From: Eledone cirrhosa
Lineage: Eukaryota
Reading direction: 5' to 3'
Length of the DNA stretch: 64,000 nucleotides
Assembly: GCA_964016885.1 (NCBI GenBank)
Contig: OZ024748.1
Coordinates: 32,798,001 to 32,862,000, forward strand
In this document: positions 23,161 to 24,223 of the stretch, one piece after another
How positions within the stretch are numbered: position 1 is the first letter of the stretch
Layout: each line of letters begins with the position of its first letter
The notes under the pieces: generated by a model
Database searches by the model: none
Told to the model about the DNA's origin: nothing
What the model saw: only the letters and a program-made list of their open reading frames with translations
Program-made: the position numbers and the translations under genes

Positions 23161-24223
23161 TCACATTTCTACCAGGTTCGATGGTCTTTCGTCTCTTGTT
23201 CACGATTTCACAGAGTTTATATTCATAGAGATCTGGGACTTGTCTATTTCTACTCACTTTCCGTTGCTTAAACCCTTTTTGTTGTTACTCTAGCGTCCCC
23301 CTTTATTTACGTGTCCCAACGACTTTTTTTAGCCGTTGTTCGCACCAACCTGAGGCATATGGCCCTTAAAGCGATGAAATGCCGAGGACGGTTGGAGGGT
23401 CACTGATGAAGGACTCACTTTTTCATATGTATCCCATTTGCAACGCCGCAGCTCCATTATTATCATCATATTTACACATATTACTTTTCCATGCTGCCTG
23501 TCTGTCTGTTCCTTGTATCTTTACCACTTCTAGCAGTCTCTCTCCCTCTCTGTTACCCTCTCCTCAACTTTCACTCACTCATTCTCTGTCACTACCTCTC
23601 CTCCTCCTCTTTCCTCCTCCTCCTTCAAGTTTGACCTGTGTGTAATTCTTTTCTCGCGCAGTCTTGACCGAGCTGGTATGGAATTTTTTTCTCTCTCTCT
23701 TTCGTCTGTGACTTCACAAAACTTGCGTTTACCGATTTCGCAGACCAGACCACCTTATCTTCTTCTTCTTCTTCTTCTTCTTCTTCTTCTTCTTCTTCTT
23801 CTTCTTCTTCTTCTTCTTCTTCTTCCTCTTCTTCTTCTTCCTCTTCTCTCCTTTCTCTGTCTCTCTCTCTCTCTTTTTTCCCCCCGTCAAACTTGGGCGA
23901 AATTCTTTCCTTGCTCACATTTCTACCAGGGTCGATGGTCTTTCGTCTCTTGTTCACGATTTCACAGAGTTTATATTCATAGAGATCTGGGACTTGTCTA
24001 TTTCTACTCACTTTCCGTTGCTTAAACCCTTTTGTTGTTACTCTAGCGTCCTCCTTTATTTACGTGTCACCAACGACTTTTTTAGCCGTTGTTCGCACCA
24101 ACCTGAGGCATATGGCCCTTAAAGCGATGAAATGCCGAGGACGGTTGGAGGGTCACTGATGAAGGACTCACTTTATCATATGTATCCCATTTGCAACGCC
24201 GCAGCTCCATTATTATCATCATA
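23161..24223 (+). mobile_element. Retrozyme-like non-coding element: two ~310-bp direct repeats (23161-23470, 23915-24223) around a pyrimidine-rich/(CTT)n spacer
   Basis: Near-identical direct repeats, each with a permuted HHR; predicted cuts after 23359 and 24112 (753 nt apart); TA-flanked. Confidence 0.8.
23340..23410 (+). ncRNA. Non-circularly permuted hammerhead ribozyme with predicted kink-turn (second copy 24093-24163)
   Basis: tcgc a ccaacc tGA ggca TA tggccct taaa gcga t GAAA tgcc gag GA c ggttgg agggtca CTGATGA a. Confidence 0.78.

Follow-up and report, generated by a model that had tools for sequence, protein, structure and literature searches.

A non-coding tandem-repeat retroelement of Eledone cirrhosa with a predicted S-G-C hammerhead ribozyme and a likely origin in Naiad-type Penelope-like elements

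The DNA between positions 23161 and 24223 of a 64,000-nt stretch of the Eledone cirrhosa genome (contig OZ024748.1; hereafter 'the window') is a single insertion of a non-coding tandem-repeat retroelement. The fold of its ribozyme and its retroelement architecture are well supported. In the account that we think probable, the element arose from the 3' end of a Naiad, a kind of Penelope-like element (PLE); each unit carries a hammerhead of S-G-C block order that is predicted to yield 753-nt units, likely circles, and these would be copied into (TA)n tracts by PLE machinery.

The insertion and its family

The insertion (Table 1) has (TA)n on both sides, and contains two direct repeats, 23161-23474 and 23915-24227, with 97.8% identity over 315 alignment columns. 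Much of the original prediction stands: two repeats of about 310 bp set in (TA)n and 753 bp apart; a cut at 23359/23360, which is predicted by analogy with the hammerhead core and lies 753 nt from its counterpart at 24112/24113; and a spacer that is non-coding and pyrimidine-rich. The monomer is 71% pyrimidine and 43% G+C; its longest ATG frame, of 115 codons, is a poly-Leu reading through the (CTT)n tract. The layout of LTR, spacer and LTR has to be given up. Family-A loci fetched from the genome are head-to-tail arrays of a 686-849 nt unit, a variation in length that likely stems mostly from the (CTT)n/(CT)n tract, and their 5' ends are scattered; the window insertion is therefore a 1.4-mer of the tandem unit rather than an LTR element, and its repeats are the overlap.

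Repeat 2 differs from repeat 1 by six changes. Three of the four that were checked are absent from every other locus examined, and one adds a base to helix e. Repeat 1 recurs unchanged in at least 12 further copies in the genome, unlike repeat 2 with its six differences. Errors in the end copied first, or in assembly, might account for the asymmetry.

Table 1. Features of the insertion and of the related copy in the window; ribozymes, helices and cut sites are predicted
Feature	Position	Strand	Basis or remark
Entire insertion, a 1.4-mer of the family-A tandem unit truncated at its 5' end	23161..24223	+	stops at the longer of two family-wide 3' ends
(TA)n target tract, upstream	22872..23160	n/a	sequence
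(TA)n target tract, downstream	24224..24930	n/a	sequence
Predicted 753-nt monomer, cut site to cut site	23360..24112	+	non-coding, 71% C+U
(CTT)n / (CT)n tract in spacer	23757..23880	+	sequence; family-A unit spacings 686-849
Post-ribozyme tail with two ATAT-bearing 3' end points	24168..24223	+	about +65 and about +105 to +113 from cut
Ribozyme 1	23313..23414	+	sequence; covariation; model R1 116 bits, copy within the R1 training set
Helix e, ribozyme 1	23313-16 with 23411-14	+	
Hairpin f, ribozyme 1	23317-24 with 23331-38	+	
Helix b (distal stem II), ribozyme 1	23340-43 with 23371-74	+	
Helix c (I-II helix), ribozyme 1	23345-50 with 23390-95	+	
Stem III, ribozyme 1	23354-58 with 23379-83	+	
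Stem I, ribozyme 1	23360-66 with 23396-402	+	predicted cut 23359/60
Core blocks, ribozyme 1	GAAA 23376-79, CUGAUGA 23403-09	+	
Pair 10.1-11.1, ribozyme 1	23410 with 23375	+	A-U in family A
Kink-turn-like motif, stem III to helix c	23351..23389	+	GA 23352-53, 3-nt bulge 23384-86, GA 23387-88
Ribozyme 2, predicted cut 24112/24113	24066..24167	+	101 bits; extra base in helix e
Family-B copy, 5'-truncated, intact ribozyme 16295-16399	16177..16409	+	stops at the +65 point

The family is large and in part young. A DNA search of the 3.0-Gb genome with the element gave 1,905 first-look candidates; among the best 40 scored, many family-A copies are 100% identical between different chromosomes. A pattern for the core of families A and B found 3,131 matches against none for its reversed control, so the matches are not due to chance. 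A C-group pattern found 4,620 (control 0), a pattern for a cut after C or U 2,180 (control 15), and an older-family pattern 312 (control 7); with small overlaps the four amount to about 10,000 copies, a lower bound. Subfamilies other than A have units of 470-620 nt, and are related to family A along their length. No run recorded as RNA was listed as containing the sequence; four runs of contigs from two organisms contain it, which speaks for its presence only.

The second copy in the window, which had been taken for a diverged solo copy, belongs to a sister family, B, with a unit of about 620 nt: 16177-16415 shares 85% identity with the window repeats, and 40 of 41 scored matches span the copy fully at 97-100% identity. 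Family B is young as well. The older families (L260-L289) have the core order and kink motif of family A with different upstream parts; in the commonest of them stem III is similar to that of the octopus Naiad ribozyme in published sequence. Around 30 older-family loci, no reverse transcriptase appeared within 1.5 kb among the tblastn matches listed.

The ribozyme fold

The conserved blocks run from cleavage site to GAAA to CUGAUGA, that is, S-G-C, a non-circular permutation of the hammerhead. Readings as type I, II or III, including readings across neighbouring units, were rejected because the cyclic order is S-G-C. The core letters CUGAnGA, GAAA and UH are present in all three window copies; their invariance across families is partly built into the search patterns. 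Ribozyme 2 is intact in its core and in all helices other than e.

Covariation carries the model. In 18 copies, 97.1% of 629 cells are paired and 12 of 35 pairs have changed on both sides; in 22 copies from about nine subfamilies (with a slight misalignment of the family-B rows at helix e) the figures are 97.5% of 747 cells and 18 of 34 pairs. In this larger set both-side changes occur in all seven helices, including five of the six pairs of stem I and one of the five of stem III; slid controls pair at 27-46%. No shuffle among 500 equals the 22-copy pairing, a count that is not a probability, as the copies are related.

Stem II is where the fold departs from expectation. One pair is formed directly (U-A, U-G, C-G or A-U), and the remainder pairs with an upstream strand. 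Helix c, in which five of six pairs have changed on both sides, has its partner strand on the 5' side, not on the 3' side as in the type-SGC class. The ribozyme is SGC-like, except that no unbroken stem II connects its G and C blocks. The pattern with 2,180 matches (control 15) names no helix partner, and it recovered subfamilies whose position 11.1 is A. Position 10.1 is mostly U in these (one of ten such loci has A); the subfamilies also show a changed helix-e pair, together with new stem I and helix c sequences that still pair.

A kink-turn has by consensus a 3-nt bulge, then tandem G-A/A-G, between two helices. A motif resembling it links stem III with the I-II helix: next to a 3-nt bulge stand two G-A steps, and neither varies in any of the 18 rows. 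The four G-A positions were absent from the patterns that found those rows. A helix at about 23331-38/23386-93 was set aside, as hairpin f and helix c covary better; it competes with the model in families A and B, and is a possible alternative fold there.

Searched with the Rfam hammerhead families, the element gave no match at E up to 10. Rfam ceN56, a Caenorhabditis sRNA, matches over the exact ribozyme span at 16 bits, where the cut-off is 60 (E 0.48-3.3), and pairs helices e and c; this probably reflects a common layout of kink-turn and end stem, or chance. Eight pattern matches in metagenomes lack the fold (best 9.2 bits).

The nearest described relatives are the type-SGC ribozymes, HRIMA-1 and its variants, which cleave in vitro (Eckert et al. 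2023, PMC10085705); the available part of that paper reports none in genomes of known organisms. The descriptors given there require G10.1-C11.1 plus two or more further pairs, so copies of the present kind would be missed. The two groups share the S-G-C order, a full core, a short linker between stems I and II, and the series 'stem II partner, one nucleotide, I-II helix'. The E. cirrhosa motif differs in that the series sits on the 5' side, one direct 10.1-11.1 pair is formed, a four-way junction is closed by helix e and hairpin f, and the link from stem III to the I-II helix is kink-turn-like. With the series moved to the 5' side, the motif amounts to SGC permuted once more, and its stem II contains a four-way junction.

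Insertion ends, arrays and the route of copying

The 41 segments in which ends were mapped come from the window itself, from 15 places with top scores and from 19 more that were chosen along a list ordered by position; the chosen places are mostly hit clusters, so that the sample leans to multimers, and inverted pairs are counted twice. The 3' ends are at the near point in 26 segments, at the far point in 12 and elsewhere in three, with TA runs starting about 65 or 104-113 nt beyond the last cut site. The 5' ends fall at varied positions, 18 of them next to simple repeats, 14 next to an inverted piece and nine next to other sequence. The family thus shows the marks of PLE-type insertion: 5' truncation, an inverted 5' piece, an optional tail and a (TA)n target. 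For PLEs and Naiads the published marks include an optional tail of 30-40 bp (PMC8557442, section 6). Tandem units, PLE-type insertion marks and the lack of an ORF uphold the earlier view of a non-autonomous, non-coding, ribozyme-bearing retroelement family.

The largest array has 29 cut sites across 21 kb, 28 with the exact spacing of the site motif and one with a point change; the hammerhead core is present in every unit. Twenty-seven of its units contain 31 private and 17 shared variant sites, with sharing mostly between non-adjacent units; long arrays therefore grew also at the DNA level, and a single pass round one circle is insufficient for the 29-mer. In a 9-site array, many variants are fixed in all eight units.

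The route that we favour would begin with the ribozyme: each unit's hammerhead is predicted to cut multimer transcripts, likely giving a 753-nt RNA that closes into a circle. That is, a transcript through a multimer would be cut at every unit, on the 3' side of the A at 23359; re-joining would be favoured by helices e, b, c and III, which would hold the monomer ends; priming would start from ATAT, either 65 or 105-113 nt beyond the cut; reverse transcription around the circle would produce anything from 1.4-mers to long arrays; a borrowed PLE reverse transcriptase and endonuclease would copy these into (TA)n tracts; finally, the longest arrays would be duplicated at the DNA level.

The ends constrain the template. 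Every 3' end lies past a cut site and the DNA reads through, so the template held joined sites; and as reverse transcription started 65-113 nt downstream and read through one or more sites, it must have copied either a circle or a multimer left uncut. The cut site is not enriched in 5' ends: 16 lie there, and 14 at a single control site of similar microhomology. This speaks against a main template of cut linear monomers and leaves circle and uncut multimer unseparated: the missing footprint fits a circle, and fits a rarely cutting ribozyme also.

One alternative builds on the latter, keeping the family and its ancestry and dispensing with the circle: the motif would cut slowly, or would act mainly as a signal for the reverse transcriptase or endonuclease, and multimers would be copied from uncut read-through transcripts of arrays. 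The even count of 5' ends is in its favour, as is the weak self-pairing of the monomer (z = -1.87; one of 20 shuffles is as stable); in a pseudoknot-free circular fold only stem III forms. Published rates of tested SGC ribozymes are slow, at 0.007-0.19 per min in the available part of PMC10085705, and eight of nine frog retrozyme dimers are described as uncleaved in vitro in that of Li et al. (2026, bioRxiv 10.64898/2026.07.22.740005). Such a scheme has nevertheless to accommodate a complete catalytic core that, in all subfamilies as well as in other species' Naiads, stays in register with covarying stems I and III, and array-wide variants that units within arrays have in common; we consider it unlikely, and prefer the self-cutting ribozyme and its circle.

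That the element is a satellite-like repeat, spreading and growing solely at the DNA level, is very improbable: variants shared by non-adjacent units of the 29-mer suit such growth, and unequal crossover has been discussed for arrays of this kind (Li et al. 2026, available part), but this accounts for the longest arrays only, and the end structure largely refutes it, dispersal over many chromosomes, fixed 3' ends, 5' truncation and inverted 5' pieces being marks of retrotransposition.

Ancestry, copying machinery and relatives

Published sequences suggest that the element was likely born from the 3' end of a Naiad-type PLE. Inspected by eye, the 3' ends of Naiad_Obim and Naiad_Ovul (PMC8557442) contain e, f, b, c, the kink motif, III and I in family-A order; hairpin f has an 8-nt loop identical to that of subfamilies C-F, and the fold sits about 70 nt before the element end. 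By the same means, three coral Naiads have an identical strand order with the kink absent, and the fold is absent from the Naiad_Omin consensus. The available part of the source paper describes Naiads as lacking canonical hammerheads, flags Naiad_Ovul only as 'HHR_half_core', and has cephalopod Naiads inactivated long ago.

The host genome does contain an old Naiad family, with CxC and DKA motifs and relatives whose GIY-YIG domain is N-terminal; it consists of broken copies, which are about 70% alike at the protein level. Downstream of 20 of these no ribozyme was seen (best E 0.09). Motif patterns for an intact Naiad gave six and one matches, none of them intact; protein searches, in the best 150 of 318 and the best 150 of 3,753 candidates, gave broken copies and no intact Naiad; a homologous-protein search with a Naiad fragment gave no matches. 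Three identical weak protein matches, considered as candidates, were not Naiads. With no intact Naiad and no ribozyme behind the 20 copies, the Naiad link is drawn from the published sequences, not from the host genome.

The original prediction had tied the ancestry to the neighbouring PLEs. These carry type I hammerheads, seven of them in the window, and the matching fold is in Naiad 3' ends, so the connection is better placed there. The Hydra-type PLE lies in tandem and inverted pieces at 8564-15860 and 24931-28298, in which a frame of 678 codons occupies 10225-12261 on the minus strand; the element stops at either of two 3' end points, about 49 or 139-145 nt beyond the cut. Its hammerheads, and others at loci elsewhere in the genome, are type I and have a palindromic stem III (dimer type). 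Of at least 120 relatives listed for one neighbouring PLE protein, the three that bear a species name are from an octopod. A 3' motif common to this element and family B (12 of 13 bases) is weak evidence of kinship, because an ATAT end is obligatory for both and the match is poorer in family A. A PLE with a reverse transcriptase and C-terminal GIY-YIG (Pfam) occupies 39037-44147 and 52951-55029; CUGAnGA is absent from its terminal repeats on either strand. On the minus strand, a GC-richer type I hammerhead-like motif at 3098 stands beside a PLE fragment with GIY-YIG-like motifs (3339-3887), and a long frame with LINE endonuclease- and RT-like motifs (58554-61404) lies between TA tracts.

It had also been proposed that the insertion might be the 3' UTR plus pLTR of an unseen autonomous PLE with an ORF upstream; ancestry of such a kind is indeed suggested by the fold's occurrence in Naiad 3' UTRs, but for the present family the segments mapped speak strongly against the proposal. 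Copies always lying downstream of a PLE ORF had been named as the outcome that would refute the retrozyme reading, and the segments do not show it. With six PLE protein fragments as queries, none of the 41 segments directly follows one, nor is an autonomous-Naiad ORF (N-terminal GIY-YIG plus C-terminal RT) found upstream of the 3' end in any; two have Hydra-type PLE fragments 622-1,254 nt upstream of a TA-rich junction. Upstream homology among copies merely repeats the unit, and pairs spaced by 2.9 kb, considered as an autonomous partner, belong to a duplicated block that includes another PLE in antisense. We give this alternative almost no weight for family A. Low-stringency BLAST of about 0.98 Mb of masked sequence with seven ribozyme-plus-tail queries linked no other element to the retrozyme among the matches listed, a listing that omitted TA-rich rows and rows of at least 80% over at least 45 bases.

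Since family A is young and only broken Naiads were found, the copier would be an unseen Naiad or another TA-targeting PLE; the two are about equally likely. An intact 857-codon PLE frame with a C-terminal GIY-YIG, not of Naiad type, occurs at locus L356 (G000:C494:20373-22943, minus strand), so active PLE machinery may exist in the genome. One can go further and suppose that a Naiad-born retrozyme outlived its parent: a kinked, multiply pseudoknotted hammerhead would cut and re-seal the 753-nt circle, its ends clamped by four helices; a different, active clade of TA-targeting PLEs would copy it by rolling-circle reverse transcription; the same ribozyme would be the Naiads' missing hammerhead; and a host kink-turn-binding protein could control cleavage. 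We offer this combination tentatively, as doubtful when taken whole.

Among described elements, the non-LTR retrozymes of animals come closest in organization, with non-coding units repeated in tandem, from two copies up to long arrays, a single hammerhead in each unit, G+C below 45-50% (here 43%), and a proposed PLE origin and mobilisation. They are defined by a type I hammerhead in the available parts of PMC7229834 and Li et al. (2026); with its S-G-C hammerhead, the present element is not a plain non-LTR retrozyme. Animal circles span 170-400 nt with extensive self-pairing (PMC7229834, available part), with retrozyme consensus lengths of up to 972 bp (Li et al. 2026, likewise), whereas the unit here is 753 nt, pyrimidine-rich and weakly self-paired. 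LTR retrozymes of plants, as characterized in the same two sources, have true LTRs, type III hammerheads, more than 55% G+C and Gypsy machinery; the likeness extends to two ribozymes about 700 nt apart per insertion and a predicted circle of 600-800 nt, and ends at the 1.4-mer overlap in place of true LTRs and at the S-G-C hammerhead. With Naiads, as far as described in the available part of Craig et al. (2021, PMC8557442), the family shares (TA)n targets, 5' truncation, inverted 5' pieces and the 30-40 bp tail, and with Naiad_Obim and Naiad_Ovul, by eye, the fold at the 3' end; unlike them, the family-A element has no ORF. Titles and abstract openings in the literature, mostly from outside subscription journals, disclosed no such ribozyme in an animal retroelement.

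If the ribozyme cleaves, non-circularly permuted hammerheads go from environmental RNA to animal genomes, with about 10,000 copies in this one; the statement that Naiads lack hammerheads would need revision; and retrozyme surveys with type I descriptors would overlook a whole group. The kink-turn is a possible answer to a puzzle raised by Eckert et al., the geometry by which stem III and the I-II helix are joined. Finally, a young family without proteins of its own, beside dead Naiads, makes cross-mobilisation between PLE clades testable.
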